Below the pieces are notes generated by a model that was given only the letters and a program-made list of their open reading frames with translations, had not been told where the DNA came from and made no database searches. A DNA stretch of 64,000 bases from Verrucomicrobiota bacterium (GTDB lineage: Bacteria; Verrucomicrobiota; Verrucomicrobiia; Limisphaerales; UBA9464). Below, piece after piece: positions 42,585 to 64,000 of this stretch (position 1 is the stretch's first letter; the number at the start of each line of letters is the position of its first letter). The DNA lies in NCBI GenBank assembly GCA_017309115.1, contig JAFLEF010000037.1, forward strand, positions 4,350 through 68,349, given 5' to 3'. The translations under genes were made by a program, and so were the position numbers.

Positions 42585-43370
42585 TCAGTGGGAATGCTCC
42601 ACGCCGTGAGCGTGGGCTCGGGCGTGCAGGATGTGGGCAATGATCTCATCCAGTCCCACGCCGTTCTTTACCTGCGCCATCACAAACGGTCCGTAGCCCC
42701 GCATCTTTTTCGCGTCGCGGGCCATCACCTCCAGATTGGCCCCCACCGCGGGTGCGAGATCGGTCTTGTTGATCACCAACAGATCCGACTGCGTCAGGCC
42801 CGGTCCCCCCTTGCGCGGGATCTTATCTCCGCCGGCCACGTCGATCACCTGGATCGTGAAGTCGGCCAATTCCCGACTGAAACACGCGGCCAAATTGTCG
42901 CCCCCCGATTCCAGCAACAGCAGTTCGGGAGCCACCGCCCGATGCAGATCCTCCAAGGCGAGCAGGTTGGCGGAGATGTCTTCGCGAATGGCCGCGTGGG
43001 GACAGCCACCGGTCTCGACCGCCCGGATCCGTTCCGCCGGGAGCGCCTCGTGTCGCAACAGGAATTCCCCGTCTTCCCGGGTGAAAATGTCGTTGGTCAC
43101 CGCGGCCAGGCTCAGACGATCCCGCAATCGCAAGCAAAGCTGAAGCATGAGCGCGGTCTTGCCACTGCCCACTGGTCCTCCGACCCCGACGGTAAAGGCA
43201 CGCTTCCGATAATCCCGCGCCAACGGCTGATCCCGATCCTGGAAGTGTCCCGGATGCTCCAGATGCTCGTGAGTATGTCCATGCGGCCCGTGGTCGTGGG
43301 AATGGCTGTGGCTGTGGCTGTGCGAATGCGAGTGTCCGTGGGAATGCTCGTGCGAATGTGGGGCGCCCAT
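42585..43370 (-). CDS. ureG: Urease accessory GTPase UreG with a His-rich N-terminal extension
   Basis: ATG at 43370 (the ORF extends to a TTG at 43406). [41 protein letters not shown] is followed by the P-loop [12 protein letters not shown] and the conserved [18 protein letters not shown] and ESGGDNL motifs. Confidence 0.95.
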
Positions 43371-43446
43371 CGCGGGAATAGTGAGCACAGTCCGTTCGAG
43401 TGGCAAATAGGCAGAGACCGCGAATGGCGAACATGAGTCCGGGCCG

Positions 43447-43878
43447 TCAGCTTCGGGAAGCTAAGTATCCCCGCCATCCGCCAAAGACCGTGATTTCGTG
43501 CTGACCTTCGCACAGCCACGGTTCGCCCAGAACGCCCAACACATCGGTTCCATCGCGCAGTCGAACCTTGCCGATGCTCAATCCCGGCGGTTCGGCCAGA
43601 AGCACTGACGCCAAGCCCGCGGGTGGAACGGCCCAGATCTCCAAGGCGACCGAGGAACCACCTTGGCGAAACCGCATCATCGCCGGATGCCGGTCCCCAA
43701 TGGTCCAGACCCGGTACTCGGGTGCCGTCGCATCCTCGCGCACAAACGTGGCTCCCACCCGCAACAGATTCGGATTGAGTTCCAAACCTCGCATCAGAGT
43801 CCCATTAACGGCCAACCACACAGGAGATGAATCCATAGAAATTCCAGAAGTGGGCCCGCCGATCTGCTCCCCCGACAC
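43447..43878 (-). CDS. Stand-alone homolog of the allophanate hydrolase C-terminal domain (gamma-glutamylcyclotransferase-like fold)
   Basis: [40 protein letters not shown]...[16 protein letters not shown]...[18 protein letters not shown]...[11 protein letters not shown] parallels the AH C-domain pattern as I remember it (VAVVGAH.SG.PLN..L...GA......T.P.YRLY.L...IE.EVW..P...FG.F...IG.V.L.DG....GF..E......DIT.FGGWRAYL). The start is GTG at 43878 or ATG at 43836. Confidence 0.6.
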
Positions 43879-43881
43879 GCC

Positions 43882-44298
43882 CTATTCTTCGAGAAACACC
43901 ACCGGCTTCTCGTAAATCGCCAAAACAATGCAACCCGCTTCGCTGATCACCCGGTGGGACGTTCCCGGCGGATTGATCATCAGGGTCCCCGCCGTGGCGA
44001 CGCTGTTCTGATCCCGCTGCGATCCCGCCAAGATCAGGATGTGCTCATAGCCGGCATGGGAGTGCAGCGGGATCCGTCCCGCCTTTTGGAAACGCAGCAG
44101 CGCCGCCGTCGGCCCGGTCCGACCATCGCCGTACAGCCGGTGAATCTGCACGCCCTCGCGAAAGGGTTGCCAGGGGATCTGATCCGCCCGCGCGGCCAGT
44201 TGGAACAACTCCGTCAGTTCGATCCGGGGATAAGTGGGGAGCGAGAGTGAGGTGTCAGACACGTTGGGACGAAAGCCTACCGGGCGGGTGCGCGACAT
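43882..44298 (-). CDS. Cupin domain protein (ChrR-like cupin)
   Basis: IPWQPFREGVQIHRLYGDGRTGPTAALLRFQKAGRIPLHSHAGYEHILILAGSQRD...PPGTSHRV is a two-motif cupin. I prefer the ATG at 44298, because the upstream part of ORF 43882..44508 is R/P/W-rich and overlaps the next gene. Confidence 0.6.
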   Translation of the reverse strand: MSRTRPVGFRPNVSDTSLSLPTYPRIELTELFQLAARADQIPWQPFREGVQIHRLYGDGRTGPTAALLRFQKAGRIPLHSHAGYEHILILAGSQRDQNSVATAGTLMINPPGTSHRVISEAGCIVLAIYEKPVVFLEE

Positions 44299-44449
44299 CA
44301 AAGCCCCGGTTGTCGGGGAAATATCCCTCCGCCAAGCCGGCCACCGGCCCCGGTGGAAGCAACGGGCTTCGCCTGGAGGAACCAAGGCAAACCAGGGCCG
44401 GCGCCGGAAGGTCGAACTACTTTGGTCTGTCGGGAGACACGGCATCTGC

Positions 44450-45133
44450 TTACTTCGAAATCGCCTGAATGAAGGCCGCGGAATCCGCGACCGCCCCGAA
44501 AACGCCACCCTGCATTTTGATCATTTTCAAGGCGGCGCGGTAATTGCCCACGTCCGTCGCCCCCGTGCAATCCGAGAGCATCAAGCACTCGTAGCCGCGG
44601 TCATTGGCCTCGCGCATGGTGGTATGGACACACACATCCGTGGTGATACCCGCTAAGGCAATGTTCTGGATCTGACGCCGTCGAAGCAGCATGTCCAGGT
44701 CAGTGGCGTAGAACGACCCCTTGCCCGGCTTGTCGATGACCGCTTCCCCGGGCAGGGGCGCCAGCTCAGGAATGATGTCCCAGCCGGGTTCGCCCCGAAT
44801 CAGAATCCGTCCGCACGGGCCGGCATCGCCAATTCCCGCCCCAATCCGCTGGCTGCGCCACCGCTTGTTCTCGGGCAGATCCGCCAAGTCCGGCCGATGT
44901 CCCTCCCGGGTGTGCATGATGTGAAATCCGGCCGCCCGGGCCGCCGCCAACACCTTCTTGATCGGCTCAATCGGAGCCCGGGTCAGGGACAGGTCGTAAC
45001 CCATCTTGTCCACGTACCCGCCGACCCCGCAAAAGTCGGTCTGCATGTCGATGACCAGCACGACGGTATTCTCGGGCCGCAAATCACCATTGTACGGCCA
45101 GGGATACGGATCAGCTGCCACGGTGCGCTTCAT
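44450..45133 (-). CDS. Isochorismatase-like (IHL) cysteine amidohydrolase, paralog A
   Basis: The Asp-Lys-Cys triad motifs are present: [31 protein letters not shown]. The insert [14 protein letters not shown] is shared with paralog B. ATGA overlap with the permease stop. Confidence 0.85.
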
Positions 45134-46743
45134 GCGGTCGCTCCTTGGGGTTCATGGTGGGACTCTTCGGCATGGACCACCGGCGCCGGCACGGTGGCAA
45201 ACTTGGCGCAGGCTGCGAACAGCACCGCCACCAACCCATAGCTTGCCGCCACCACCGGTGATTGCCCGATGCCAATGCGTTCTCCGTGCATGAATCCGAA
45301 ATAGGTCATCAGCGCTCCCGCCAGGGCAAAGCCCGCCGCCTTGTAGAATCTCCGGTCAATGATGCACACGGCGATCGCCCCGAGGATCAAGCCGCCCAAA
45401 ATTGATCCACCGCCGAGTACCTGCAGACCATGATACAGCACGCCTTCGTTGCGCATTTTGCCCTCGAGATCCGCCAGTTGTTGCGGACTCAAAGCCGGCA
45501 TGACCGTTCCCGCCGCCGCCAATGCGCCGTTGATCAACGTCACGGCCCAGTTGGCCAGATGCGGAACCAGCGAGAGGATGATCGCCGGCGCGTGGGACTT
45601 CGGAGTCTCCTGGAAGGCCTGCGAACCAATCAGCATCGCGATGTAGAGCAGGATCGGGAGAATCGCCACCGCCGGAATGACCGCCAACATCAGCGAGATC
45701 GTTCCAAACCAGCACAGCAGGATCACCAGGATTCCCGTCGCCGCCGAGTATCCGATTCGCCCGCCCATCGCCTTCCAACCCGGATGCCCAATGTACACGG
45801 CGTTGATGAACGGATTACCCATCATACATCCGATCAGGCTGACCACGCCGTCCGCGGTCAGCACCCGAACCGTCGGGAAGCTGTCCCCAGCTACCGCGGC
45901 GCTCTCCACGTTGTCGATGGCTTCCACCAGGTCATAGATGCCGAACGGGATGGCAGTCACGAGCAGGATTCCCAGGAACTCAAACCCGGAGAACACATGC
46001 CCGAACGCCGGCAACGGCACCCGGAACCCGAAGCTGGTGAAAGCATCCGTCACTCCCTTCAACGACATCCCGCCGAAGTTCAATCCCACGGCCGTCGAAC
46101 CCCAGGCAATCGCCGTGCCCACCGCAATGGCGATCAGACCCGCAGGCACTCCCCGATACCGCACGCCGCCAAACCAGCTCAGCAAGATGATCGCAAAGCA
46201 CACCAACCCGATCACCGGATTGAGGAACATCTCCAGCGCCGGTCGCATCGAGATGAAGGTAATGGAAACACCGGCCAGTGTGCCCAGCAGGGCGGCTCGC
46301 GGCGTGATCTTGCGAATCCACGGCGCCACAAACCCGCCAATCATCAACACAAAGCTTTGAATGAACACCCAAGTCAGTCCCGCCTCCCAACCCTTGATTG
46401 GATCACCCGTCTTGAGGGTGATGGGCAGCATGATCACGAAGGTGACCACGAACATGTGGGGCACGCTGATCCCAGAGGGCAGTGCGCAAATGTCCGAGCG
46501 GCCGGTCTTCAACGCCAATTTGTAGGCCAGCCAGGCGTAGTACATCGTGGACAGAAACAGCATCAGTCCAGTCGCGGGCAGGATTCGCCCAAAGACGAGG
46601 TCGTCCGGCATTTTCAGCACAAACCGGAGCAGCGCCGTCAGCGTGAGCAAATTGACCAGGATGTTTGTGCCGAAGCCGAAGAAGGCATTCCAGTCTCCGG
46701 GCACCCAAATCTTGGGTTTAGTGAGCGTGGCAGTGGTGTTCAT
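45130..46743 (-). CDS. Polytopic permease, NCS2/AzgA-like (xanthine/uracil permease superfamily)
   Basis: 537 aa with ~12-14 hydrophobic segments. The N-terminus [18 protein letters not shown] and the overall layout are reminiscent of AzgA-type purine-like permeases. The family call is from memory only. Confidence 0.55.
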
Positions 46744-46782
46744 GGAACTCAGATATCTGCAAGGGGTGGGGTTGGGGAAAAC

Positions 46783-47460
46783 TTACGAGAGGACAGAGAC
46801 CAGGCGGTCGGAATGGGTGACCCAGCCGAAGATGCCGCCCTGGGCTTTGATCATGTTCAGACCCATTTCCTGGAAATGGGGGAAGTAGGAACCCACACAA
46901 TCCTCAGGCACGAGGCAGTCATAGCCCCGGTCATTGGCCTCGCGGACGGTGGTGTTGACGCAGACCTCGGTCGTCACTCCGGTGACCACCAACTGGGTGA
47001 GTCCCTGATGCTGCAGAATCGACTGCAGATCCGTGGCGTAGAAAGCGCCCTTGCCCGGCTTGTCGATGATCGGTTCCGAAGGCAGCGGGTAAAGTTCGGG
47101 AATGATGTCATGCCCGACTTCTCCCCGAACGAGGATTCGACCCATCGGGCCGACATCCCCGATGCAGGTCGTACCCCGCCCGCGAATCTTCTTCGCCGGC
47201 GGTAGATCGGTGAGATCGGGCCGATGCCCTTCGCGGGTGTGAATCACCGTCAGGCCCGCCTTTCGCCAGGCGGCCAGAAGGCGGCGGTTGGGTTCAATGG
47301 TCCGACGCAACTGAGAGACGTCGTTCCCCAACATTTCCCCGAAACCGCCGGGCTCGAGAAAGTCCCGCTGCATATCTATAATCAGCAGCGCGCACTTCGC
47401 CGGAGTCCACTCGAAGGGATAAGGCTCCGCTTCGATCGGTATCGTGGGTGGGAGTTGCAT
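46783..47460 (-). CDS. Isochorismatase-like (IHL) cysteine amidohydrolase, paralog B
   Basis: Triad motifs [49 protein letters not shown] is also present. By eye, about half the positions are identical to paralog A. Confidence 0.85.
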   Translation of the reverse strand: MQLPPTIPIEAEPYPFEWTPAKCALLIIDMQRDFLEPGGFGEMLGNDVSQLRRTIEPNRRLLAAWRKAGLTVIHTREGHRPDLTDLPPAKKIRGRGTTCIGDVGPMGRILVRGEVGHDIIPELYPLPSEPIIDKPGKGAFYATDLQSILQHQGLTQLVVTGVTTEVCVNTTVREANDRGYDCLVPEDCVGSYFPHFQEMGLNMIKAQGGIFGWVTHSDRLVSVLS

Positions 47461-47474
47461 GGGTTGGCAGAGAA

Positions 47475-48482
47475 TCAGAAGAAGATACCAATACCTCCGT
47501 ACACCTGGGTGATGTCGGAGACCGCTTTGCCCGGGGCATTGAACTGCTGCATGCCCTGGAGATTTTCGTCGATGAAGTCCTGGAAGCGGAAGCCAACGTG
47601 GAAGTTCCAGTTGCCGTAGCCCGGCGCGATGAACTTCAACGGCACACTGCCCTTCACCCCCAGTTCGTAGAGGCCCACGGTCGAGCTCGGTCCGTAGTAC
47701 TCGCCGTAGAAGTTCGAGTCCGGCAGCAATACCCGCAGCGGCGCCTCCAGCCGAATCTGATACTTACTGAACGTGTATCCCGGGGTCACCCCGAGCTCAA
47801 AATAGAATCCTTCGCCCGGTCCCGGTTCGCCCAGAAACACATTGTACGGAACCCTCGCCGCCGTGGCCTTTTCGGAGAGTTCAGCCCAGAACATGAAATA
47901 GGGGCGCAGCGAGAACTGCTTCAGCCAGGGAGAATCATCCAACGTCAACTTCACCTCCAGATTCTGCGACGTCGGGATGTCCAGGATCTGCATGTTGAAG
48001 ACGCTGTAGGTCATGTCCAACTTCAGCTGCTTCATCAGCGTCAGCGAAACTCCGGCGATGGCATCAATTTCCACCCAATGGGTCTTGGGCTCGCTGCCGA
48101 AGGGCGCCTGCCGGGAGACGGGTTCCGTGGCGAAGTCGTTCCAGACTCCGCCCACCAACGTCACGTCATTCACGAAGGAGTCGGACTTGTAGACGTTCAC
48201 GAATCCCAAGAGCAATGGCTGAAAGGTCAAACCGTCGTCTTGGACGATCATGCCGCGGGGCGTCAGATACGCGTCGGCGAATTCAAAGTTCAACAGCATG
48301 TTGACCCGCGACGGTGACGGCGGCGGACTGGGATCCTGCCCTTCGTTGATTTGCGCGACGGCCGAGAGCCCGGGAGCGCTCAACAACGCCGCCGTTGCCA
48401 GCGAACGCCAGGGACGAGAAACACCGGAATAGCCAGACCGGTGGGAAACCGCAGATGTCTTCGAGGAAGCCAACATGTTCAC
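47475..48482 (-). CDS. Putative outer-membrane beta-barrel (porin-like) protein
   Basis: Signal peptide ...LATAALLSAPGLSAVAQ. Amphipathic beta-strand pattern rich in Y/F/G. The C-terminal GGIGIFF has an OMP-type terminal Phe. It is the first gene of the hydrolase/permease run. Confidence 0.55.
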   Translation of the reverse strand: MNMLASSKTSAVSHRSGYSGVSRPWRSLATAALLSAPGLSAVAQINEGQDPSPPPSPSRVNMLLNFEFADAYLTPRGMIVQDDGLTFQPLLLGFVNVYKSDSFVNDVTLVGGVWNDFATEPVSRQAPFGSEPKTHWVEIDAIAGVSLTLMKQLKLDMTYSVFNMQILDIPTSQNLEVKLTLDDSPWLKQFSLRPYFMFWAELSEKATAARVPYNVFLGEPGPGEGFYFELGVTPGYTFSKYQIRLEAPLRVLLPDSNFYGEYYGPSSTVGLYELGVKGSVPLKFIAPGYGNWNFHVGFRFQDFIDENLQGMQQFNAPGKAVSDITQVYGGIGIFF

Positions 48483-48532
48483 AGGAGGTTCGAGGGTGGG
48501 ACCGCGAGTTCATCGACTCGCTGCCCTCCTTA

Positions 48533-48549
48533 AAGCTCCCGCCATGCCA
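48533..48549 (-). promoter_or_regulatory. Candidate sigma-54 (-24/-12) promoter upstream of the beta-barrel gene
   Basis: The minus strand reads TGGCATGGCGGGAGCTT. The GG and GC dinucleotides have the canonical spacing of TGGCAC-N5-TTGC. It lies ~50-65 nt upstream of the start at 48482, next to a gene for a GAFTGA-containing activator. The -12 box is imperfect (GAGCT). Confidence 0.35.
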
Positions 48550-48674
48550 GCGGCACCACTGTCCAAAAACCTCGTGTTTACAGGGCTTTCTCCTTCCGCC
48601 CTCCCCGGGCCGCCAAACCTCGCCTGTTTCAAGTGTCGCCTGTGAAACACCTGCGACAGAGGGTCGGGATGGTC

Positions 48675-50189
48675 TCATGCGCTTCCTTCGCGTCCGGCCG
48701 CCGCCGGTTGCTCCTCCAACGCAAGTTTGCGGTAGATGCGCGTGCGATGAACCCCGAGCAGTCGGGCCGCATCCGCAATGTTGCCACCGGTCTCCTGCAA
48801 GGCGCGCTGAATTAAAAGATCCTCCGCGGCCGCCAGATTCAATGGCAGTTCCTCCACCGCCAGCGGACGGCTGCGAACCGGGGAGTCACTGACCCGTCGC
48901 CCTCCCGGCAAGCCCAGATGCGCCGCCTCAATCGATCCGCCGCCGCTCTCAATCAGCGCGCGCTCCATCACGTTCTTGAGCTCCCGTACATTCCCCGGAA
49001 AGGCATGCTGCGACAGCGCCCTCTCGGCTCCCGGCGTCAGCAGCGGCGGACGCAGCCCCATCTCCCGAGCGAACACTCCCAGGAAGTGTCGCGCGAGCAA
49101 CGGCACATCCTCCGACCGCTCCCGCAGGGCTGGCGTGTGCACCCGATATCGGGCCAGGCGGAAGAACAGATCCTGACGAAACGTTCCCGCCGCTACCCGG
49201 GCATCAAGATCGGCATTGGTCGCGGCGACAATGCGAACATCCACCTGCCGCGCGTGCGTGGCACCCACCGGAGTGATGCGTCCATCTTCCAACACACGGA
49301 GCAGCTTGACCTGAAGGCTCACCGGCATGTCGCCGATTTCGTCGAGAAACAGCGTCCCGCCATCCGCCAGTTCGAAATAACCTTTCCGATCCGTCAGCGC
49401 TCCGGTGAATGCCCCGCGGACATGCCCAAACAGTAGCGACTCCGCCAGTTCCCCAGGGATCGCTACGCAGTTCACCGGGATGAACGGACCCTGGGCGCGT
49501 TGACTGTCAAAGTGGATGGCCCGTGCGACGAGCTCCTTGCCCGTACCGCTTTCTCCGGTGATCAGGACGGAGGTTCGGGCAAACGCATGCAACCGCCGAA
49601 TCTCCTCCACGACCTTGCGAATATGCGGACTGGCTCCCACCAGTCCGGCGACGTTCCAGCGCTCGGCTTCCCGACCCGACATCACCGCGAGCTGTTCGTC
49701 CGCCCGTTCCAGCGCCAGTTCGGCCTGCTTCCGTCGCTGCATCTCCGCAGTGAGCTCGGCGGTGCGCGTTTCCAAGGCCTGATTCTTCTCCCGTAATTCC
49801 CGAGTCAACCGATTCAGCCGCAGATGGGTCGCCACCCGGCTCAGCACTTCGTCGGTCTGGAAGGGCTTCACCACGTAGTCCACACCCCCGGCGCGAAACC
49901 CATCCACCACGCTGGTCAGTTCGGTTCGCGCCGACAGAAAAATCACCGGAATCTCCCGCGTGGCTGGATCCGCCTTCAGCCGCCGACAGGTCTCCAAGCC
50001 GTCCACTTCTGGCATGAGGATGTCCAGCAGGATGAGCTCCGGGGCCGCCCGGTTCGCCACCTTGATTGCCGCCAAACCGCTGGACGCCGCCAGAATCTCG
50101 TACCCTTCAGGTTCCAGCGCCGCAGTCAGCAACGCCAGGTTCTGCGGCACATCATCCACCACCAGGATTTTTCCGGACGTAGGCGACAT
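48675..50189 (-). CDS. Sigma-54-dependent response regulator (NtrC family: REC + coiled-coil linker + AAA+ + Fis HTH)
   Basis: REC domain (KILVVDDVPQNL...DILMPEVDG). Walker A GESGTGKELVARAIH. GAFTGA loop (VRGAFTGAL). The C-terminal HTH is GNIADAARLLGVHRTRIYRKL. Confidence 0.9.
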   Translation of the reverse strand: MSPTSGKILVVDDVPQNLALLTAALEPEGYEILAASSGLAAIKVANRAAPELILLDILMPEVDGLETCRRLKADPATREIPVIFLSARTELTSVVDGFRAGGVDYVVKPFQTDEVLSRVATHLRLNRLTRELREKNQALETRTAELTAEMQRRKQAELALERADEQLAVMSGREAERWNVAGLVGASPHIRKVVEEIRRLHAFARTSVLITGESGTGKELVARAIHFDSQRAQGPFIPVNCVAIPGELAESLLFGHVRGAFTGALTDRKGYFELADGGTLFLDEIGDMPVSLQVKLLRVLEDGRITPVGATHARQVDVRIVAATNADLDARVAAGTFRQDLFFRLARYRVHTPALRERSEDVPLLARHFLGVFAREMGLRPPLLTPGAERALSQHAFPGNVRELKNVMERALIESGGGSIEAAHLGLPGGRRVSDSPVRSRPLAVEELPLNLAAAEDLLIQRALQETGGNIADAARLLGVHRTRIYRKLALEEQPAAAGREGSA

Positions 50190-50210
50190 GAAGGTCGAAG
50201 GAGACGAGTT

Positions 50211-52664
50211 CTAGGTTCCGGAGGGAGTTTCGACCGGCCGGGGTGTGACCGCTTCGGACAGCAAGCGAAGAATGGCGTCCATGTCGTAGCTGCGCATCCG
50301 ATGGCGGATCAACTCCGCCAACACCCGCGCCTCGGGCCCGTGATCACGGAGCTCCACCAAGGCAGCCTTAAGCGCCGTAGTGCTGTGCAATTCAGCGGCC
50401 ACCGTTAATCGTCCGAGCAGATCTTCGGGCAGGGTGATCCGGGGCAGCGGGGCCGACATTGCCGTCAGATGTTCCACCCCCGATTCGGCCAACTCAAACT
50501 CCACTCCCAACTGCCGCGACAAGCAGTCATAGAGCCGCTCGGCGCGAAACGGCTTCGCCAAAAAGTCGACGCAACCCGCGGCGCGGGCCTCCGCCTCGAA
50601 GGCGGGGAGTGCGGACGCGGTATGCGCCACGATCGCTAGCCGAGGGTGAGTCGCCCGCAGCTTCCGCGCGACTTCCAGACCACTGATCCCAGGCAACAGC
50701 AGATCCAAAAACACAATGTCCGGGACCTTCCGCCCGATTGCTTCCAGCGCCGATTCGCCATCGGCGGCCAATTCAACGTCGCAGCCAATCACGGTCAGCA
50801 GCCCGCCCAACACATCGCGATTTTCCCGGGCATCATCCACCACCAAGGCGCTCACCTTCGTTCCTGGTTTGAGCTGCTTCACATCCTGCCCCACCGCTGG
50901 AAAATCCGCCTGGCTGACCGGAAGAGGTACTTCAAAGTGGAATCGCGAGCCAATGCCCTCGGCGGACTGCAACTCGAGCTGACCTCCCAAGAGTTCCACC
51001 TGGCGGCGCGCAATGGCGAGTCCCAATCCCGTCCCTGCCTGATCCCGGGCTCCCCGGCCCTGATGGAACGGCTCAAAGATATCCCGCTGCTCCTCAGGGG
51101 GAATTCCCAGTCCGGTGTCGATCACCTCAAACCGCCAGCGATTCTCCCCCACGCGTCGCGCCTGGACGTACACCTCGCCGCGTCGAGTGAACTTCACGGC
51201 ATTGCCCAACAAATTGATCAGGACCTGACGCAGTTTCCCCTCGTCCCCGCGCACCGCCAAGGTCCCCTCCGGATGCACCTCCATCCGGAATCCGATGCGC
51301 TTCTGGGCGCACAACGGATGGAACGTCGCCGCCAGACTGCGCACTAAGGCGGTCAGATCGAAGTCGACCGGATTCAATTCCATCCGTCCGGCCTCAATCT
51401 TCGACAGATCCAAGATCTCATTGATCAACCCCAACAAGTGCTGGCCGCTGGAACTGATTCCGGCCAGGGCATCGTGTTGTTCCGGCGGCAACGATGGATC
51501 CCGACGCATCAACTGGGCGTACCCCAGGATCGCGTTCAACGGAGTGCGAATCTCGTGGCTCATGTTGGCCAGGAAGTCGGACTTCGCCTGATTGGCCGCC
51601 GCCGCTGCCGCCTCGGCCTCCTGCCGCACCCGGACTTCCTCCTGCAACGCCGCATTGGCCGCCGCGATGTCTTCGGTCCGACGCCAGTTGCCAATCAGGT
51701 AGGCCGTCAGCAGTCCGGAAAACGCCAGTCCCCCCAGCAGCACCCAGCGCGACTGCGTGCGAGTCTGCTTCGACGCAAAGGTGGGCGTCGGCGTGAACAC
51801 CAGCGTCCAGGGACGCCCGGCAAATTCCAGGGTCGTGCGCTGAACTCCATCGGCCGGGGTCAGGGCCAGAGTCGTGTCCCCGAACATCCATTCCCCGCTC
51901 GGTGACTCGTCGAACAACGCCGCCCGAATACCGCCCAAATGCAATTCCCGGAAAGCCGACTCCACCAGTGCGGCCACGCGGAAAACGGCGACGGCGAACC
52001 CGGCCAGTTCCCGTTCCCGATGAAACACCGGACGCAACACCAGCAACCCGGCCTCGCCCTCAGGACCTTGGGCCAACCGGACCGGAGCCGTCGCCACCGG
52101 CTGTCCGGAAGTCCGCGCCGCCTCGATGGATCCCCGACGCCGCGCATCCGATTCCAGATCGAACCCCAGAGCCAGCGCGTTTCGTTCCGGAGGTTCGATC
52201 AGATAGACGGGGACATACTCCGGACGGATTCCGGCGGGCACCAGTGCTCCTTCGGGTGAGTGTTCCCGGAACTCAAAGGACTCCACTCCTTCCGCCCGGG
52301 CAGCGACTTCAAAGGCAGCCCGCTGGGAGGCGGGGACCCAGGGATTCCATGAGAGCGCCTGGAGTTCCGGCTGACGTTCCAAGGCGGGCCGGACAAACGC
52401 GCGAAACTGGCGGCGACTGATTCCGCCTTCGACGTCGTGCAACGCGGCAATGGAATGCAGGACTTCGATCGACTGCAGCATGCTGACCTGCAGTTTCTCC
52501 ACCTGTTCCCGGGTGAAGTCGGCCGCACGCAGATTGAGTTCGCGTTGTTCCCACGACCGCAGGTTCTCGTAGAGCACTCCCGACAACGCGAGAGCCAACC
52601 CCACCACGCTGAAAATCCAGAATGGGGGCCACCGGCGGCGCTGCTGAAAGGTCCTGCGTGGCAA
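50211..52664 (-). CDS. Hybrid sensor histidine kinase with a periplasmic CHASE domain (CHASE-TM-HisKA-HATPase-REC + C-terminal helical tail)
   Basis: TTG start. An N-terminal TM helix is followed by CHASE-like blocks ([55 protein letters not shown]). The H-box is [17 protein letters not shown]. HATPase G-boxes are present ([14 protein letters not shown]). REC domain ([12 protein letters not shown]...DLLLPGISG). Confidence 0.9.
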
Positions 52665-52811
52665 CTCTAACCGGTGGAAGCACTTTGTTTGCCGAGGGGC
52701 CTTTGGCTCAGCAGAAGCCCCGCAATTACCGTCAGCGCAACGCCCCCATTCTCAACGACTCCCGACGCCCCCGCCTAAATCCCCACAGCCTGAGCAATTC
52801 TCGTCCACCTG

Positions 52812-53027
52812 CCTCTCGCCCGCCCGGCAGAGCGAGGTTCCACCGAGCCGTACGTGCAGCAGACACAGGACGTACGTTTCCCCATCCGCATGGCCCACGC
52901 GAAGCGTCTTGGACTGCGGGAGCCCTCTACCGCTTTTCGTCCCGGCTGCTGACGCGTCGATTACTGCCGAACCCCCAACCGACCTCTCGCCCGCCCGGTA
53001 GGGCGAGGTTCCACCGAGCCGTACGTG
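52812..53027 (+). repeat. Two direct copies (171 bp apart) of the REP-like head cctctcgcccgcccgg(c/t)ag(a/g)gcgaggttccaccgagccgtacgtgc
   Basis: 52812..52856 and 52983..53027 are near-identical. Between them lies an inverted copy (52898..52930) of the W-type repeat found at 53205 and 54237. Confidence 0.8.
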
Positions 53028-53204
53028 CTAGCCCGGATATTTCACAGGCTTTCGTCGCGAGGCGCCGCGAAAGCCCGTCTGGCAAGGCGGCCGAAGCGAT
53101 TCCGAACCGGGCTGTATGGGGACATACTTTCCGGCGAGGAATGCGAGGCCAACGCCGCCAGTCTGGCTTGCAGCCAGCCGCAGCAGCAAGAGTGAGAAAT
53201 ATCC

Positions 53205-53328: not shown

Positions 53329-53355
53329 TTTTTGCGACTGATCGGAGATCAAATC

Positions 53356-54350: not shown

Positions 54351-55028
54351 TTAGCTTTGGAAGAGGCGCATCGGCAGGCGGTCGTGCAGACCTTGCCAGA
54401 GATCCTGCAACGGGACCGTCTGCGCCACGTCGTCCAAGCCCAACTGACCGCAGCGAACCCGCACCGATTCTCCCAGCGGCGCCATCCGCCGCTGCCAGCC
54501 CTGCGCTTCGAGCGGACCAAGCCGATTCAACCGAACCGCCGCCGCCACCAGACCCCGCAGATGCCAGAACAGGAACAACCGTTGAACCGTCTCCAGAGGA
54601 AGACCGAGTTGGGCTGTCACCGCGCCGAAGACCGGTGCCAGGTGCCCCCGGAACTGCGGTTCGGAACTCAGGGGCGGGAGTTCGAAGATGCGCTCCGCCG
54701 CCAACAGGAGCGCCCGTCCCTGAAGTCGACTCGCTCGGTTAGCCACGTGATTGGAGGTAAACGCCTCGCAGAACTCGTCCCACTCCAGGATTCGCTCCGG
54801 GGCTTCATAAGCGACCCGAACTAAAGGCAACACCGCCCGACCCACCTGCTCCAGGCTGGTCCGAAAAAACCGTTCCAATCCTGCTCGATCCGACACTTCC
54901 CCGATTTGAACTGCCGCCTCGAGCCCCGCCGAATGCGCGAAGCCGCCCGATGGGAAGGCCGAGTCCACCCACTGCCATACCAACCACTCCAGTTCGGGGG
55001 CCATGCCGGTCATCAGGGCGTCAGCCAA
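54351..55028 (-). CDS. ureF: Urease accessory protein UreF
   Basis: LVWQWVDSAFPSGGFAHSAGLEAAVQ is the UreF signature. The ORF starts at a TTG at 55028, with an alternative ATG at 55013. Confidence 0.9.
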   Translation of the reverse strand: MADALMTGMAPELEWLVWQWVDSAFPSGGFAHSAGLEAAVQIGEVSDRAGLERFFRTSLEQVGRAVLPLVRVAYEAPERILEWDEFCEAFTSNHVANRASRLQGRALLLAAERIFELPPLSSEPQFRGHLAPVFGAVTAQLGLPLETVQRLFLFWHLRGLVAAAVRLNRLGPLEAQGWQRRMAPLGESVRVRCGQLGLDDVAQTVPLQDLWQGLHDRLPMRLFQS

Positions 55029-55052
55029 CGGAGAAGTTCATTCCCATCCGGA

Positions 55053-55082
55053 AATCTGTGAAAATCTGCGTTTAATCTGCGG
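55053..55082 (+). repeat. 30-bp three-decamer element (copy 2) in the ureC-ureF spacer
   Basis: aatctgtgaaaatctgcgtttaatctgcgg differs at one base from 30259..30288. Confidence 0.75.
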
Positions 55083-55107
55083 TTCCACCTTCCCCTACGC
55101 GGCGAGG

Positions 55108-56823
55108 TCAAAAGAGGAAGTATCGCTGGGCCAGCGGCAGTCTGGACGCCGGGTCGCAGACGAGGAGTTCGCCATCGGCACGAACCTCATACGTCTCCGG
55201 ATCCACCGTGATCTTCGGCGTCGCATCGTTCCACTTCAGATCCTTCTTCGAAACCGTTCGGCAGCCCCTCACGGCTTCCAACCGCTTGTTCAGTCCGTAC
55301 TGGGTCACGACCCCTTGTTCCAAGCTGAGCCCGCTGACGAACGCCACCGAACTGGCTCCCGTGGCCCGTCCAAAGCTGCCGAACATCGGTCGCATGAACA
55401 CCGGCTGCGGCGTCGGAATGCTGGCGTTGGGGTCACCCATCTGGGACCACGCAATGAACCCGCCCTTGATCACCATCTCCGGCTTGGCCCCAAAAAAGGC
55501 CGGCTTCCACAAGACGAGATCGGCCAGCTTTCCTTTTTCCACTGAACCCACCAGATGTCCCATGCCATGAGCCAGGGCCGGGTTGATGGTGTACTTGGAG
55601 ATGTATCGCTTGATCCGCAGATTATCGTTGGCACCGGATTCCCCCGGCAGACGTCCCCGCTGCTGCCGCATCTTATCGGCGGTCTGCCAGGTGCGGGTGA
55701 TCACTTCCCCAATGCGCCCCATCGCCTGACTGTCGCTGCTCATCATGCTGATCGCGCCCAAATCGTGCAGGATATCTTCCGCCGCAATGGTCTCGCCGCG
55801 AATCCGACTTTCGGCAAAGGCCACGTCCTCCGGCAACGTGGCATCCAAATGATGACACACCATCAGCATGTCCAGATGCTCATCCAGGGTGTTAACCGTG
55901 TACGGCCGCGTCGGATTGGTAGAACTGGGCAGGACATTCCGCTCCCCGCAGATCCGAATGATGTCCGGCGCGTGCCCACCGCCAGCACCTTCCGAGTGGT
56001 AGGTGTGAATGGTGCGACCTTTGAAGGCAGCGATGGTTCCCTCGACGAAGGTGGATTCGTTCAGCGTGTCGGTGTGGATGGTCACCTGAACGTCATGCTG
56101 ATCCGCCAGGGTCAGACAGCAATCAATGGCGGCCGGCGTCGTTCCCCAGTCCTCGTGCAACTTCAGTCCAGTGGCTCCAGCGCGAACCTGTTCGATCAAT
56201 CCAGCCGGCAACGCGGTGTTCCCCTTGCCGGTCAGACCAAAGTTCAGGGGCAGCGTATCCAACGCTTGAAGCATCAGGCGGAGGTTGTGGGAACCCGGCG
56301 TACAGGTGGTGGCACAGGTTCCGACGGCCGGACCGGTTCCGCCTCCCACCATGGTGGTCAAGCCGGAGGCAATTGCTTCATGGGCCTGCTGCGGACAAAT
56401 GAAATGAATGTGGGTGTCGAGTCCGCCGGCGGTGAGAATCAGTCCCTCGCCCGCGATGACCTCGGTGGTCACGCCCACAATTAGCCCCGGGGTGACCCCG
56501 GCCATGACATCCGGGTTGCCCGCTTTGCCAAGCCCCACAATCAAGCCGCCTTTGATCCCGACGTCGGCTTTGAAGATTCCCGTGTAATCCACCACCAAAG
56601 CGTTGGTGATCACCACATCCAAAGCATCGGCATCCCCAATGCCAGCGGCCTGGCCCATGCCTTCACGAATCACCTTTCCGCCGCCGAACTTGCATTCATC
56701 GCCATAGACGGTGTGGTCCTTCTCCACCTCCAGGATGAGGCTGGTGTCTCCCAACCGAAGTCGGTCCCCGGTGGTGGGACCAAACATCTCGGCGTAGTGC
56801 TGACGGTTCATTCGATGCGGCAT
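55108..56823 (-). CDS. ureC: Urease alpha subunit UreC
   Basis: The ATG at 56823 gives [29 protein letters not shown]. The motifs [32 protein letters not shown] and the C-terminal YFLF are all canonical. Confidence 0.97.
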
Positions 56824-56857
56824 GGCGGAATCTCCGGAAATGGTCAGGGTTGGGAAA

Positions 56858-57625
56858 TCAGGCGGACACGGATTCCTGGTGGGCAAACCCGCGTTGCTTC
56901 ACGGCCGCCAGGGCCTTTTGGCGACCTTCTTCGCTCACCGGGCCACTGGCCAAGGCGTTACCTCCCTGGATTACCCGGTTTCCGGCGATATCCACCAGGA
57001 CTACGGTTTTGGTTTCGCCGGGTTCAAAGCGGACTGCAGTGCCAGCCGGGATATTGAGGCGCTTGCCATAGGCGAGCGAGCGGTCGAAGCGCAGCGCCCC
57101 ATTGGTCTCGACAAAGTGATAGTGACTGCCCACCTGGATGGGTCGGTCTCCGAGGTTAGTGACCGCCAGTGACACTACCGACCGGCCTTCATTAAGAACG
57201 ATTTCGCCGTCCAAAATTTCCGCCGACCCAGGCTCGGGTTCATTCACAGGCGCCGGGAACAAATCAAGTGAAGGCACCGGGAGAAAACTGCCGTACAACG
57301 CCAGAGTCAGATCTCCGTGTTCGGCGGCGATCGGGTGATGCACTGTGACCAGTTTGGAGCCGTCGGGAAACGTCCCTTCCACTTGAACTTCGATGATCAT
57401 CTCCGGAACCCCGGGCAGCACCTGATTTCGCCCCAGAAACTTTCGACCCAGGCTCATCAACTCCGCCACCCGGCGTCCGTCGCGAATGAACTCAAGCAAT
57501 TGCGTGGAGATCAGGGCAACCGCTTCCGGATAGTTCAGCCGAACTCCACGGGCCAGGCGTTTCTGCGCCAGAAACCCGGCGTTGTGCAGAGCCAGTTTCT
57601 CAAGTTCGCGGGGAGTGAGATGCAT
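56858..57625 (-). CDS. ureAB: Fused urease gamma-beta subunit (UreA-UreB)
   Basis: The N-terminal half [39 protein letters not shown]... is UreA (gamma). A ~35-aa linker follows. The C-terminal half [36 protein letters not shown]...[16 protein letters not shown] is UreB (beta). Confidence 0.95.
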
Positions 57626-57667
57626 GGAAGAAAGGATCAGGGAGAACTTCGCAGGAAGGCAACTCTG

Positions 57668-58507
57668 TCACCACTTTCGAGCCAGCGGATCGTCGCCCAA
57701 AAACGCCGGCAAAAACGCGAGACACTCGGCAGTCTGACGGCGAACCGCCTCCACCGTGGTACCCGCCACTCGGATCAATAAGCCTCCGGCGAGTGGACTG
57801 GCACTCAGTCGGGTGGCTGCTCCACGGCCGGCGGGCCGAGTCTGAATCGTCTCACTTAGCGCCTGCACCGCCGTCGCCAGAGGAGGCCCCCACAGAACGA
57901 TCAACGTCATCGCCTGACAGGATCCCATGCGAACCCCGATAGGAATCTCCGGACCGTCTTGGAGGACCACGGAGTCCAGCCAGCGGCGGGATCCTTCGAC
58001 CCACAATTCCGTGCGCGTCCGGTATTCCTCGAACTGCCAGTGTTCGCCCCGTTCGGAGCGACCGGCGGTAAAACCATCCACCCACACCAATCCGGCGGAA
58101 GCGGCCATCCGGATCTCCTGCTGCTGCCGATACCGCGCACCAGCGAAGGCCTGTACCGGATCGGGAATCCAGGCGAGAAAAGAATCCTCCTTCAGAATGG
58201 CCCGGGTCCGTTGCAAGCAGGGAAGTCCGACGGGTGACCGGTAAACTTTGGTGGAAGACTGCGTGCCGAAGAAGGCCGAGGCGCCAGCGCCAATCGTGAG
58301 GTCGAGGTGATGTTCATCGCCGGACACCATGCCTCCGCCATAACTGCTCACATACGCCCAGACACTCCGACCCCGGGGACGCGGCGTGAGCAGTTTGAGC
58401 GGGCTCGTCGCGGACGCCTGAACGACTGCCGACGAACCGGAAACTTGCTGCACGTCCAGTTCCAATCGCCCGGCGGGATTCCGGGTTTCCCAAAGCATTC
58501 GGCTCAA
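57668..58507 (-). CDS. ureD: Urease accessory protein UreD/UreH
   Basis: The position between urtE and ureAB, the length of 279 aa, and blocks such as GGGMVSGDEHHLDLTIGAGA and TQSSTKVYR are typical of UreD. The start is a TTG at 58507 (overlaps the urtE stop) or an ATG at 58498. Confidence 0.85.
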   Translation of the reverse strand: MSRMLWETRNPAGRLELDVQQVSGSSAVVQASATSPLKLLTPRPRGRSVWAYVSSYGGGMVSGDEHHLDLTIGAGASAFFGTQSSTKVYRSPVGLPCLQRTRAILKEDSFLAWIPDPVQAFAGARYRQQQEIRMAASAGLVWVDGFTAGRSERGEHWQFEEYRTRTELWVEGSRRWLDSVVLQDGPEIPIGVRMGSCQAMTLIVLWGPPLATAVQALSETIQTRPAGRGAATRLSASPLAGGLLIRVAGTTVEAVRRQTAECLAFLPAFLGDDPLARKW

Positions 58508-59199
58508 ACCGTCAGATGTTGTTTGACGATGTCGTCGTTGAGGTGGCGGATCGGACCCTCGGCCACAATCGCGCCGCGATCCATGATGTAGAAAACATCC
58601 CCCACCTCGAGACAGAAGTCGAGGTACTGCTCCACCAGCAGGATTCCCATTGTGCCGATGCCCCGCAGGGTTTTGATGGTCTCACCAATCTGGTCGATGA
58701 TGTTCGGCTGGATCCCTTCGGTGGGCTCATCCAGGAGCAACACCTTGGGCCCGGTTAAGAGCGCGCGACCGATCGCCAATTGCTGCTGTTGTCCGCCGGA
58801 AAGCACCCCGCCCTTGCGTTGCAGCATCTCCTTCAGCACCGGAAACAGTTCAAACACCCGTTCCAACTCCCCGTTGAGCCGCTTGCCCTGCGCAATGGCA
58901 CCGATTCGCAGATTCTCCCAAACGGTGAGACTCGGAAAAATGTCCCGTCCCTGGGGCACGTAGCCGACCCCAGAGCGTGCTCGTCCATCCGGGGGAAGGC
59001 CGACCAACTCCTGACCATTCAGTTTCACCGAACCCGAGACCGGCTTCACCAGTCCCACAATGGATTTGAGGGTCGTGGTTTTGCCAACGCCATTGCGGCC
59101 CATCAGACAGACCACCTGCCCGGGCGCGACAGTCAGGCTGACGTCCCGCAGAATGCGCGAGCCGTCGTAGTTCACGAGAATGTTGGAGAGAGCCAGCAT
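58504..59199 (-). CDS. urtE: Urea ABC transporter ATP-binding protein UrtE
   Basis: Walker A GRNGVGKTT, GVGYVPQGRDIFPSLTVWENL, the signature LSGGQQQQLAIGRAL, and LLLDEPTEGIQP. Confidence 0.9.
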   Translation of the reverse strand: MLALSNILVNYDGSRILRDVSLTVAPGQVVCLMGRNGVGKTTTLKSIVGLVKPVSGSVKLNGQELVGLPPDGRARSGVGYVPQGRDIFPSLTVWENLRIGAIAQGKRLNGELERVFELFPVLKEMLQRKGGVLSGGQQQQLAIGRALLTGPKVLLLDEPTEGIQPNIIDQIGETIKTLRGIGTMGILLVEQYLDFCLEVGDVFYIMDRGAIVAEGPIRHLNDDIVKQHLTV

Positions 59200-59216
59200 G
59201 GAAAGTTGGGGGGAAT

Positions 59217-60005
59217 TCAGTGGGCCGCGAGGGCAGGAGTCGGACCAGGCTTCTCCTTTTTCTTGCGCCCGAGATAGACCTCGATGACCCGCTCATCATT
59301 CTGCACCTGATCCACGGTGCCTTCGCAAAGCACATGGCCCTGATGCAACACGGTCACTTTGCGGGCAATCTGCCGGACGAAGACCATGTCATGCTCGATC
59401 ACCACGATCGTGTGCTTGCCGGCCAATCCAATCAGAAGCTCCCCCGTCTTGGCAGTTTCCTCGTCGGTCATGCCCGCGGCGGGTTCGTCCACCAGAAGCA
59501 CCTTGGGATTCTGGGCGAGCAGCATGCCGATCTCGAGCCACTGCTTTTGACCATGCGACAGTGAACCCGCCTTCACGTCGGCCCGGGCGGCCAAGCCCAC
59601 GGTCTGGAGCACCTCATGAATCCGGTCCCGCTGCGATGTGGTCAGTCGAGACACCAACGCCTGCCATAGTCCGCGGCTACCTTCGAGCGACAGCCAAATG
59701 TTCTCGAACACCGTATGATCGGTGTACACTGACGGCGTCTGGAACTTGCGTCCGATGCCCAGTCGATTGATCTGATACTCGTTCAGCCGGGTCAGATCCG
59801 TGTCCTTGCCGAACTCAACCTTGCCGGTGTCGGGTCGGGTCCGGCCGGTGATGATGTCCAGCATGGTACTTTTCCCGGCCCCATTGGGTCCAATGACCAC
59901 CCGGAGCTCGCCCTTATCGAGATACAGGTTGAGGTCATTAATGGCCTTGAAGCCGTCGAAGGTTTTATTGACCCCTTCGAGCATGAGGATGAATTCGGGA
60001 GTCAT
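59217..60005 (-). CDS. urtD: Urea ABC transporter ATP-binding protein UrtD
   Basis: The ATG at 60005 forms an ATGA overlap with the urtC stop. Motifs: [77 protein letters not shown]. Confidence 0.9.
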
Positions 60006-61171
60006 TCGGCGGCGGGTTTGGCGGCTGTGGACGGAGTCGAAGTAGGAGCGTCCTCCGGTTTCGTTTTCTTGCCCCGGCGGAAGGTCCGCCATTGCTCGGG
60101 CAAGCCGACGATTCCCTTTGGCATAAACAGAGTCACAAAAACGAACAAGGCGCCCAGGATGTAGGGCCATTGTTCAGCGAAAGCGTGGGTGGCGTAACTC
60201 TTAAGCGAATTGACACCAATGGCGCCGAGTACCGGGCCTACCAGAGCGCCGCGGCCTCCCACCGCACACCAGACCACTGCTTCGAGTGATTTGTCCGGCG
60301 CCATTTCGCTGGGGTTGATGATCCCGACCAACGGGACAAACAAAGCACCGCCGAGCGCGCATATCACTGCCGCCAGGACGAACACGAAGAGCTTGAACTG
60401 GGCAGTGGCATAGCCGGAGAACAGCACCCGATTCTCAGAATCCCTGATGGCCCGTTGGATCAGACCAAACTTGGTGGAGGTCAGCCAGCGGCAGAACATG
60501 TAGACGCCCAGAAGGAGCGCCACGGCACAAATGAACAAGGCGCGCTTGGTGGAGGGCGAATTGAGGTCGTAGCCGAGGATGAACTTGAAGTCGGTCAGTC
60601 CGTTGTTCCCACCGAAGGTGAAGTCGTTACGGAAAAACATCAGCGAAGCGGCGTACGTCAGCGCCTGGCTCAGAATCGAAAAATACACGCCTTTGATTCG
60701 CGAGCGGAAAGCCAGGTACCCGAACGAAAGCGCCACTAAAGCCGGCACCCAAATCACCGCTGCCGCGGCAAACCAGAAGTTGCGGAACGGGATCCAATGA
60801 GGCGGTAGTCCGCCCGTCTCCGGAAATCGTTTGGGGAACTCGAGAAAGACCATGAAGTCCGGAATGTCGGCCTTGTACTGACCCAAATTCCCAATCATCA
60901 GCATCAGGTACATGCCGAGGCAGTAACCGCCGAGCGAGAAGAACAAGCACTGGCCCAGGCTGAGAAGCCCTGTGTAGCCCCACAGCAGGTTCACTCCCAA
61001 CGCCAGCACGGCGTAGCACAGGTATTTGCCCCAGATGCTGAGACTGAAGGTGCTAACGTGGAAAAAGCTGTCGGGCGACACGAAGGTATTGAGGGCCGGC
61101 AACACGCCGAACCCGACCACCGCCGCCAACAGCAGCAGCCAAGCTTCAGTTCGGGAAAATGAGCGCAACAT
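60002..61171 (-). CDS. urtC: Urea ABC transporter permease UrtC
   Basis: Branched-chain-type permease. [24 protein letters not shown] is typical of UrtC. The position is between urtB and urtD. Confidence 0.9.
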
Positions 61172-61206
61172 GGGGATCTCGTTTCAGGGGGAACCGTCCG
61201 CGTTTC

Positions 61207-62892: not shown

Positions 62893-62965
62893 GCGAAAGT
62901 GAACTGGGATTATTGAAAAGGGGACGGGTCGCCTCCGACCCGTCCCGTGTGGCAACAGGAGGAGA

Positions 62966-64000
<1,035 letters not shown>

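Follow-up and report, generated by a model that had tools for sequence, protein, structure and literature searches.

The published pathway of triuret degradation runs from triuret through carboxybiuret and biuret to allophanate (PMC7948467). In Herbaspirillum sp. BH-1 and Rhizobium leguminosarum 3841, an operon clusters the paralogous genes trtA and biuH and also encodes AtzF and, in some genomes, TrtB (PMC7948467). The latter is a carboxybiuret decarboxylase of the AtzH/HpxZ family found in some triuret systems (PMC12625717). The published case closest to ours is a Nitrosomonadaceae contig on which trtA-trtB-biuH-atzF-bmpA/nupABC lies near a complete ureABCDEFG cassette (mSystems 2025, PMC12625717). 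The breakdown of biuret and triuret is held to end with allophanate hydrolase, urease being explicitly excluded, according to the statement of PMC5806882 that cites Cheng et al. (2005). Here, we analyse a stretch of 64,000 nucleotides (nt) of the Verrucomicrobiota contig JAFLEF010000037.1, hereafter the window, in which predicted triuret and biuret hydrolase genes lie inside a urease gene cluster. We read this locus as a sigma-54-controlled operon for scavenging triuret and biuret that entered a Verrucomicrobiota (Limisphaerales-like) urease cluster between ureF and ureG and would hand urea to urease. We give this reading a probability of about 0.6.

On the minus strand, the genes follow the order urtABCDE, ureD, ureAB, ureC, ureF, CHASE kinase, GAFTGA activator, barrel, hydrolase B, permease, hydrolase A, cupin, AH_C-only protein (a stand-alone homologue of the C-terminal domain of allophanate hydrolase) and ureG (Table 1). 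An earlier note on this DNA, made from the letters alone, had given these positions and strands, the nesting inside the urease cluster with ureG at its end, and a module with its own CHASE kinase, sigma-54 activator and uptake parts (a barrel, which has a porin fold, and a permease). All of these are present. The note also took the pathway to be undescribed, and here it erred, since the route from triuret to allophanate is already published. As in the Herbaspirillum and Rhizobium operon, trtA and biuH are paralogous and clustered, their catalytic and specificity residues are identical, and the chemistry to allophanate is predicted alike. The window differs from that operon in lacking the AtzF amidase and TrtB, in having a stand-alone AH_C protein, a cupin, a porin-like barrel and a permease without Pfam match, in its CHASE/sigma-54 regulator, and in sitting inside a urease cluster with ureG last. 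It shares with the Nitrosomonadaceae contig the presence of triuret/biuret genes and a urease cassette on a single contig, but there AtzF and TrtB are present, the transporter is of the ABC nucleoside type, and the urease cassette is complete, separate ('nearby') and unsplit by the module. Hence, the TrtA/BiuH pathway is known, and what is new relative to the literature descriptions that we found is the variant: no AtzF or TrtB, AH_C with a cupin, a porin and a permease without Pfam models, CHASE/sigma-54 control and insertion into urease genes that lack ureE and encode a His-rich UreG.

For comparison, we used related stretches of DNA from genome and metagenome scans (L0xx and L1xx). A permease-centred scan of 185,579 species genomes gave 80 loci, of which a well-flanked subset of 43 has at least 5 kb on both sides. 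An AH_C-centred scan of metagenomes, made with a profile of the stand-alone protein, gave 37 loci of at least 5 kb.

Two hydrolases of the triuret pathway

Hydrolase A scores 419.4 bits against NF050097, the BiuH equivalog (cutoff 370), whereas hydrolase B scores 273.9 and falls below the cutoff. The former aligns end to end with the crystallised BiuH of Rhizobium leguminosarum (6AZO; 411 bits, 76.5% identity). Hydrolase B scores 272.6 bits against Herbaspirillum TrtA (6XIX), 253.6 against Herbaspirillum BiuH (6XJM) and 239 against 6AZO. The margin is modest, with 58% identity to TrtA versus 54% to BiuH.

The active sites allow a finer comparison. In TrtA, D24, K129 and C162 form the catalytic triad, and F29, E72, K132 and Q202 bind the substrate (Tassoulas, Elias and Wackett 2020, PMC7948467). 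Six second-shell positions separate more than 500 TrtA and BiuH sequences: F35, N41, A134, E160, Y187 and I205 in TrtA, against Y, Y, S, D, T and V in BiuH (PMC7948467). We compared residues after correcting a 3-residue numbering offset. Hydrolase B has D24, F29, E72, K129, K132, C162 and Q202, the TrtA-type residue at 6/6 second-shell positions (F, N, A, E, Y, I), and also the cis-peptide residues V157-T158. Its signature, DFFNEKKAVTECYQI, equals that of Herbaspirillum TrtA at 15/15 functional and discriminating positions. At the same 15 positions hydrolase A is identical to R. leguminosarum BiuH (15/15), including the triad, the Q215-equivalent glutamine and all six BiuH-consensus residues. 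The signature residues are common to the 66 TrtA-type sequences derived from the loci (67 with the reference structure), save for one V157I. The assignments of hydrolase A as BiuH and of hydrolase B as TrtA are thus strongly supported by sequence comparison. Because the hydrolases match these two enzymes, the module is predicted to encode two consecutive steps of the published triuret pathway.

The earlier note had proposed ureide chemistry, in one or two steps, by two isochorismatase-like amidohydrolases. Profile and active-site comparisons uphold this, with TrtA and BiuH as two sequential enzymes. Its statement that the substrate is unknown is superseded by the equivalog-level match of BiuH and the six discriminator residues of TrtA. 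In its strong form, the proposal implied that the whole route from ureide to urea is undescribed and that both hydrolases are novel, their specificity being unknown. We found no literature description of an architecture combining barrel, permease, cupin, AH_C-only protein, ureG and CHASE/sigma-54 proteins, as this form would have it, but both hydrolases can be assigned to characterised and crystallised enzymes at the equivalog or signature level. We regard the strong form as very improbable.

One could also suppose that the real substrate of these TrtA/BiuH-type enzymes is not fertiliser triuret or biuret but a natural compound formed by oxidation of purines or urate, or a different N-carboxy or carbamoyl ureide, taken up by an AzgA-like carrier. 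Some pipelines name the permease an AGZA-family purine permease, and it has a weak co-linear hhalign match to E. coli AdeP (residues 288-375 versus 287-372, 30% identity over 84 columns). Genes of the TrtA type also occur with oxamate-carbamoyltransferase-like FdrA, DUF1116 and DUF2877 proteins and carbamate kinase, in E. coli and in soil contigs, and Tassoulas et al. proposed urate oxidation as a natural source of triuret (PMC7948467). However, the hhalign probability is only 2.6%, every published specificity determinant of TrtA and BiuH is retained exactly, and TrtA is reported to be ultraspecific for triuret (PMC7948467), an activity about 10^4-fold lower on biuret being a mark of this enzyme. 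This makes another substrate unlikely.

A proposed route from allophanate to urea

We found no AtzF amidase domain in the 64-kb window by tblastn with the full-length AtzF of a Brevifollis locus (L051); only the AH_C segment matched. Sampling of the window between 1 and 42 kb gave no ureE, nickel transport gene or atzF, only unrelated secreted proteins and enzymes. TrtB (AtzH/HpxZ family) is not in the operon, because every operon open reading frame (ORF) is otherwise assigned, and related loci hold no conserved cluster of small ORFs. When hidden partners or TrtB were sought by clustering family-less ORFs around the module in 160 loci, only parts of ABC transporters and lineage-specific neighbours emerged. 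Allophanate decarboxylates spontaneously to urea (PMC3944691, legend of Fig. 1). Since the window has no AtzF, urea is the expected product from allophanate.

The pathway that we propose would begin with the CHASE hybrid kinase, which would sense a periplasmic ligand and activate the NtrC-type regulator, causing the -24/-12 promoter before the barrel gene to fire. Triuret and/or biuret would enter by the porin-like barrel and the permease. TrtA would convert triuret to carboxybiuret and NH3, carboxybiuret would lose CO2 to give biuret, and BiuH would convert biuret to allophanate and NH3. Allophanate would then be decarboxylated to urea, spontaneously or aided by AH_C and/or the metal-binding cupin. 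Finally, the flanking nickel urease would free the last two nitrogens, with the gene of its GTPase, ureG, ending the run. The gene identities, the residue signatures, the conserved promoter motif, the recurring synteny and the lack of AtzF in the window are observations. We infer the physiological substrate, the roles of AH_C and of the cupin, the flux through urea and the co-transcription of ureG from gene content. The hand-off of urea to urease, which the earlier note had put forward, is on this basis the most economical reading of a window without AtzF amidase, and it keeps the standing of an interpretation.

Conservation of the nested arrangement

The nested order ureC-ureF-kinase-activator-barrel-(biuH)-trtA-permease-(biuH)-cupin-AH_C-ureG is also found in L017, L034 and L038. 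In L032 the order from kinase to ureG is the same, and the contig stops before any urease structural gene. Two metagenome loci (L124 and L126) have ureF-kinase-activator-barrel-biuH-trtA-permease-cupin-AH_C-ureG. The nesting is kept in at least six other Verrucomicrobiota assemblies, with proteins 52-90% identical to those of the window. The gene order thus recurs in relatives, and the nested arrangement is not due to chance.

We then related the presence of urease to the complement of AH_C and AtzF in the well-flanked loci. Urease genes lie at 10 kb or less from 5/9 loci with AH_C only, 0/7 loci with AtzF and 2/27 other loci (Fisher exact test, p = 0.002, a value that overstates independence since the positives are related lineages). 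In the AH_C-centred scan, 6 of the 37 loci are window-like (L094, L124, L126, L142, L152 and L154), and in L091 AH_C is followed by ureG.

The GTDB records of three loci (L030, L035 and L042) are titled 'uncultured Klebsiella sp.' or 'Enterobacteriaceae', yet the loci are Verrucomicrobiota-like, and proteins of L030 and L035 are up to ~85% identical to those of the window. The taxonomy labels of these metagenome-assembled genomes are probably wrong.

A stand-alone AH_C protein

The AH_C-only protein is homologous to the C-terminal domain of allophanate hydrolase (AtzF and the AH domain of DUR1,2; 4GYR, 4ISS) but lacks the amidase-signature catalytic domain. Its match to TIGR02713 is confined to profile positions 437-563 (93 bits versus a cutoff of 511). 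It aligns with c4763 of E. coli CFT073 (5C5Z) over residues 7-125 with 160.8 bits and 63% identity, and scores 59.7 bits against the AtzF structure 4GYR. Members of this family have about 130 amino acids (aa) and motifs, including DRHPAM, that are invariant in 10 members; 20 positions of the alignment are invariant in both the stand-alone proteins and the C-domains of AtzF.

Among the permease loci, 15 encode the AH_C-only protein and none of these AtzF, while 10 encode AtzF and none of these the AH_C-only protein. For example, AtzF stands right after the permease in L028, where the otherwise syntenic L009, L014, L015 and L025 have the cupin and AH_C. AtzF is absent from all 37 AH_C-centred metagenome loci. 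One of them, L148 (Ga0075425_100002076), has, next after its AH_C gene, an amidase-signature gene that shares just 30% identity with the amidase domain of AtzF; this pair may be a split or alternative allophanate-type hydrolase.

The orphan AH_C is a general companion of TrtA where AtzF is absent, with or without BiuH and urease. Because of this companionship, it likely processes an N-carboxylated ureide arising from this chemistry. The substrate may be carboxybiuret, in a TrtB-like role, or allophanate, in a role replacing AtzF. Both readings would be reconciled if all versions of the pathway depended on an AH_C activity, provided by the C-domain of AtzF in some and by the separate protein in others. 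We tried and dropped TrtB as a family assignment for the AH_C-only protein, TrtB being of the AtzH/HpxZ family going by Fig. S11 of PMC12625717; a TrtB-like function is possible. A bolder and tentative suggestion is that the c4763-family AH_C is an undescribed decarboxylase of N-carboxy ureides (allophanate to urea and/or carboxybiuret to biuret) that defines AtzF-independent branches of triuret and biuret degradation.

The family also occurs in a different context. Clusters of the type FdrA-DUF1116-carbamate kinase-AH_C account for 14 of the 37 AH_C-centred loci; eight of these 14 have a permease paralogue of ~50% identity and six have trtA. In E. coli (L086; NZ_CP015229.1, 4826940-4845375, locus 8798-16985), an accessory island between ysgA and metE encodes a TrtA-signature hydrolase, DUF2877, FdrA, DUF1116, carbamate kinase, the c4763 AH_C-only protein (named 'allophanate hydrolase-related protein'), a cytosine-type permease and a LysR regulator. 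Its hydrolase is 64% identical to hydrolase B, with an identical TrtA signature, and a match to the trtA homologue is found in 1,560 of 5,426 complete E. coli genomes (~29%). A 2026 genome paper describes the island as GR29 of strain BEN2908 and guesses at pyrimidine degradation (PMC12928451). Like the window, it has a stand-alone AH_C (63% identical to ours) in the same operon as a TrtA-signature hydrolase, and no AtzF. Unlike the window, it has FdrA, DUF1116 and DUF2877 (oxamate-carbamoyltransferase-like), carbamate kinase, a CodB-like permease and LysR as partners, and lacks BiuH, cupin, barrel, urease and the sigma-54 system. Its content suggests to us the breakdown of triuret or a ureide to carbamoyl phosphate rather than that of pyrimidines.

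Regulation of the module

The CHASE domain of the sensor kinase is flanked by transmembrane segments. The kinase-activator pair accompanies the module in 17 of the 80 loci, in two different positions, which argues for a dedicated regulator. A search with the strict sigma-54 consensus TGGCAC-N5-TTGCW (at most 2 mismatches) gave no match in the gap between activator and barrel, and matches across the window were no more frequent than expected by chance. By reading the gap and comparing orthologous upstream regions, we identified a predicted promoter, TGGCAT-N5-GAGCT, with GG and GC in -24/-12 register within the 192 nt of the gap. The strict search missed it because it has three mismatches to the textbook consensus. 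The motif TGGCA[CT]-N5-nnGC lies upstream of the barrel gene in all related barrel-bearing loci save L040, with a few degenerate instances, and it is also found where kinase and activator lie downstream of the operon or are absent from the fetched stretch.

Neither a hairpin search nor folding (z = +0.5) revealed a terminator between AH_C and ureG, which makes read-through into ureG plausible.

Coupling to urease or mere insertion

In the myxobacterial locus L082, contiguous ureD-AB-C-F-G genes are divergent from trtA-permease. The adjacency of ureF and ureG thus exists, the module is separable, and the Limisphaerales-type layout is best explained if the module was inserted between these two genes. 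This raises the alternative that a mobile triuret/biuret module landed there without metabolic coupling, AtzF or urea amidolyase being encoded elsewhere and ureG having its own promoter. The proximity would then amount to no more than a common neighbourhood of nitrogen-scavenging genes. The module is without urease in 34 of 43 loci, and the kinase-activator pair is placed differently in L049, L051 and L056.

Several further observations weigh against our reading. Two loci (L030 and L035) keep the module after urtDE-ureD-AB-C-F, in the order barrel-biuH-trtA-permease-cupin-AH_C; both lack the kinase and the activator, and the 9 kb that follow do not contain ureG. In the otherwise divergent spacers before ureG, the window, L032, L034 and L038 share a sigma-70-type motif 7-9 nt before the ATG, TTGCCA-N17-CACTAT in the window and TTGCCA-N17-TCCAAT in the other three. 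The absence of AtzF holds for the 64-kb window, and atzF could lie elsewhere in the genome. The mutual exclusivity of the AH_C-only protein and AtzF is not significant within the 43 well-flanked loci (p = 0.17). The AtzF motif V-x-G-A-H-L-x-G-x-P-L-N is altered in all stand-alone members, GAHL becoming GTLM. The histidine of GAHL is said to have been proposed by Fan and colleagues in 2013 as a catalytic residue of the AH C-domain. The chemistry of the AH_C-only protein may hence differ from that of the AtzF C-domain. Besides, this protein also occurs with TrtA in clusters lacking BiuH and urease (FdrA-DUF1116-carbamate kinase-AH_C-permease-trtA), so that its role does not depend on urease, and carboxybiuret, not allophanate, may be its substrate. 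Finally, the adjacency to urease could result from a shared control by nitrogen limitation instead of a shared flux.

Other patterns count against insertion only. Loci with AH_C only are enriched beside urease and never have AtzF, while loci with AtzF are never beside urease. Without AtzF, two of the four nitrogens of triuret could be reached via urease only. The conservation of the nested order in diverged assemblies also speaks against insertion without coupling. Hence, we consider insertion without coupling rather unlikely, and favour an operon that feeds urea to the surrounding urease. The transcriptional tie of ureG to the module, which the earlier note had proposed, fares less well: read-through is open to the polymerase as no terminator separates AH_C from ureG, but the conserved candidate promoter and the two loci without ureG count against it. 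Expression of ureG may combine a constitutive part with read-through, and a tie between urease activation and substrate sensing is possible but unproven.

Candidate uptake proteins and the cupin

The β-barrel of the earlier note proved to be a genuine porin-type fold. An AlphaFold2 model built with 42 homologues has a predicted local distance difference test (pLDDT) score of 83 and is all-beta over residues 55-335, with ~14 strands. Foldseek matches in the PDB include OmpC (1.4e-7), OmpG, PcoB and NanC, and the top 50 are outer-membrane barrels or engineered derivatives of these. The protein has no Pfam or NCBIfam match.

The permease has no relative in Pfam, NCBIfam or the PDB by sequence or profile search, and its AlphaFold2 model has a pLDDT of 44 (from a shallow alignment of 30 sequences). 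NCBI names it 'regulator' and JGI 'AGZA family permease'. It is 71-90% identical across Verrucomicrobiota, Acidobacteriota, Planctomycetota, Myxococcota and Proteobacteria (loci L006-L085). Conservation of this degree points to spread by horizontal transfer or to very strong constraint. Of the 80 permease loci, 69 also have trtA, nearly always as the next mapped gene. In seven loci (L009, L010, L014, L015, L025, L028 and L039), a block of ~3-4 kb between barrel and trtA encodes an ABC transporter, and its ATPase, ~28% identical to UrtD, sits directly between biuH and trtA. Because of this inserted block, these loci would have a second uptake system besides the permease.

The metal motif of the cupin (H79, H81, E85, H115) is intact and is retained in 63 homologues. 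The gene accompanies that of the AH_C-only protein in 14/14 window-type loci.

Organization of the locus

The positions of the features are given in Table 1. The matches of UrtB to UrtE are above the equivalog cutoffs; UrtA, whose 5' end is cut by the end of the window, scores 439.6 against a cutoff of 492.75. As in canonical ureDABCEFG clusters, ureD, ureA/B (here fused), ureC, ureF and ureG are co-directional and lie beside urtABCDE. The window differs from these clusters by the 11 kb of foreign genes between ureF and ureG, by the lack of ureE, and by a His-rich N-terminal extension of UreG. The urease cluster otherwise has ureAB, ureC, ureD, ureF and ureG, and leaves no room for ureE because the genes from ureD to ureF are contiguous. 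The extension (43236-43370) has 18 histidines within its first 45 residues, with HSHSHSHS repeats, and is also found, in shorter form, in L017, L032, L034 and L038. By analogy with plant UreG, a His-rich UreG may stand in for UreE. Genes downstream of ureG are on the plus strand.

Table 1. Features of the window, in the order of the minus strand. Positions are those of the 64,000-nt stretch.
Feature	Position	Strand	Assignment and evidence
urtA, urtB, urtC, urtD, urtE	58504..64000	-	urea ABC transporter; TIGR03407-03411 equivalogs are the top matches
ureD, fused ureAB, ureC, ureF	54351..58507	-	urease structural and accessory genes
ureD	57668-58507	-	PF01774
fused ureAB	56858-57625	-	NF009671
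ureC	55108-56886	-	TIGR01792, 961 bits
ureF	54351-55028	-	PF01730
R2K_3 ATP-grasp ORF	53332-54141	+	PF14243, 2.2e-13; sole opposite-strand gene with a family match
hybrid sensor kinase	50211-52664	-	periplasmic CHASE, HisKA (H-box SHEIRTP at residue 369), HATPase_c, REC (Pfam)
NtrC-type sigma-54 activator	48675-50189	-	REC, AAA+ with GAFTGA at residue 259 and Walker A at 212, HTH_8 (Pfam)
sigma-54 -24/-12 promoter (predicted)	48534..48549	-	TGGCATGGCGGGAGCT, start 67 nt upstream of the barrel GTG
outer-membrane porin-like beta-barrel	47475-48482	-	335 aa; signal-peptide-like N-terminus; ends ...GIFF
trtA (hydrolase B)	46783-47460	-	predicted triuret hydrolase; PF00857 4e-44; best PDB matches 6XIX, 6XJ4
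multi-pass permease	45130-46743	-	537 aa, uncharacterised family; candidate triuret/biuret importer
biuH (hydrolase A)	44450-45133	-	predicted biuret hydrolase; NF050097 above cutoff
Cupin_7 / ChrR-type single-domain cupin	43882-44298	-	138 aa, PF12973
AH_C-only protein (c4763 family)	43447-43836	-	129 aa; PF21986 1.4e-37; proposed N-carboxy-ureide decarboxylase
candidate ureG sigma-70-type promoter	43378..43406	-	TTGCCA-N17-CACTAT, 7 nt before the ATG; consensus-level
ureG	42585-43370	-	TIGR00101, 271.7 bits vs cutoff 204; final gene of the co-directional run

The genes of the module are closely spaced at most junctions: 21 nt between kinase and activator, 192 nt between activator and barrel, 14 nt between barrel and hydrolase B, 39 nt between hydrolase B and permease, a 4-nt ATGA overlap of permease and hydrolase A, 151 nt between hydrolase A and cupin, 45 nt between cupin and AH_C (3 nt with a GTG start) and 76 nt between AH_C and ureG. 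The 151-nt spacer between biuH and cupin (44299-44448, minus strand) contains a long GC-rich hairpin (-66.8 kcal/mol). Given its z of -1.8 and the lack of a U-tract, we did not call it a terminator; it may serve in processing or attenuation, or represent a repeat resembling repetitive extragenic palindromic (REP) elements.

The gap between ureF and the kinase (52664-54351) spans 1.7 kb and holds, besides the ATP-grasp ORF, a plus-strand ORF without family assignment (52622-53341). In L017 and L034 the same gap measures only ~230-340 nt and the ATP-grasp ORF is absent. Hence, this ORF is best seen as a secondary, later insertion outside the module. Elsewhere in the window (17894-20502 and 24675-29342), a tandem pair of nucleoside-hydrolase-like genes of the Sde182 type and a gene for a 1,555-aa protein that joins a PhoD phosphatase to a 5'-nucleotidase C-domain suggest nucleic-acid and phosphate scavenging, with no established link to the module.

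Implications for triuret and biuret metabolism

As impurities of fertilisers, biuret and triuret are applied at a scale of hundreds of millions of pounds per year, and both also arise when urate is oxidised. The locus nominates four proteins for the discovery of function, namely the AH_C-only protein, the cupin, the permease and the porin. If our suggestion on the AH_C protein is true, the permease without Pfam match would be the first triuret/biuret transporter. The locus also provides a concrete hypothesis for the so far unexplained c4763 island of E. coli, which is associated with extraintestinal pathogenic strains (ExPEC). A widespread variant in soil Verrucomicrobiota that has an orphan AH_C domain in place of AtzF, and is wired to urease, would mean that the release of the last two nitrogens has to be considered anew. 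If AH_C is the decarboxylase suggested above, there would be a branch through urease, as in this locus, and a branch in which an AllFGH-like transferase and carbamate kinase yield carbamoyl phosphate and ATP, the latter in soil bacteria and in ~29% of complete E. coli genomes. The rule that these compounds are broken down by allophanate hydrolase, and not by urease, would then fail for a large group of soil bacteria.

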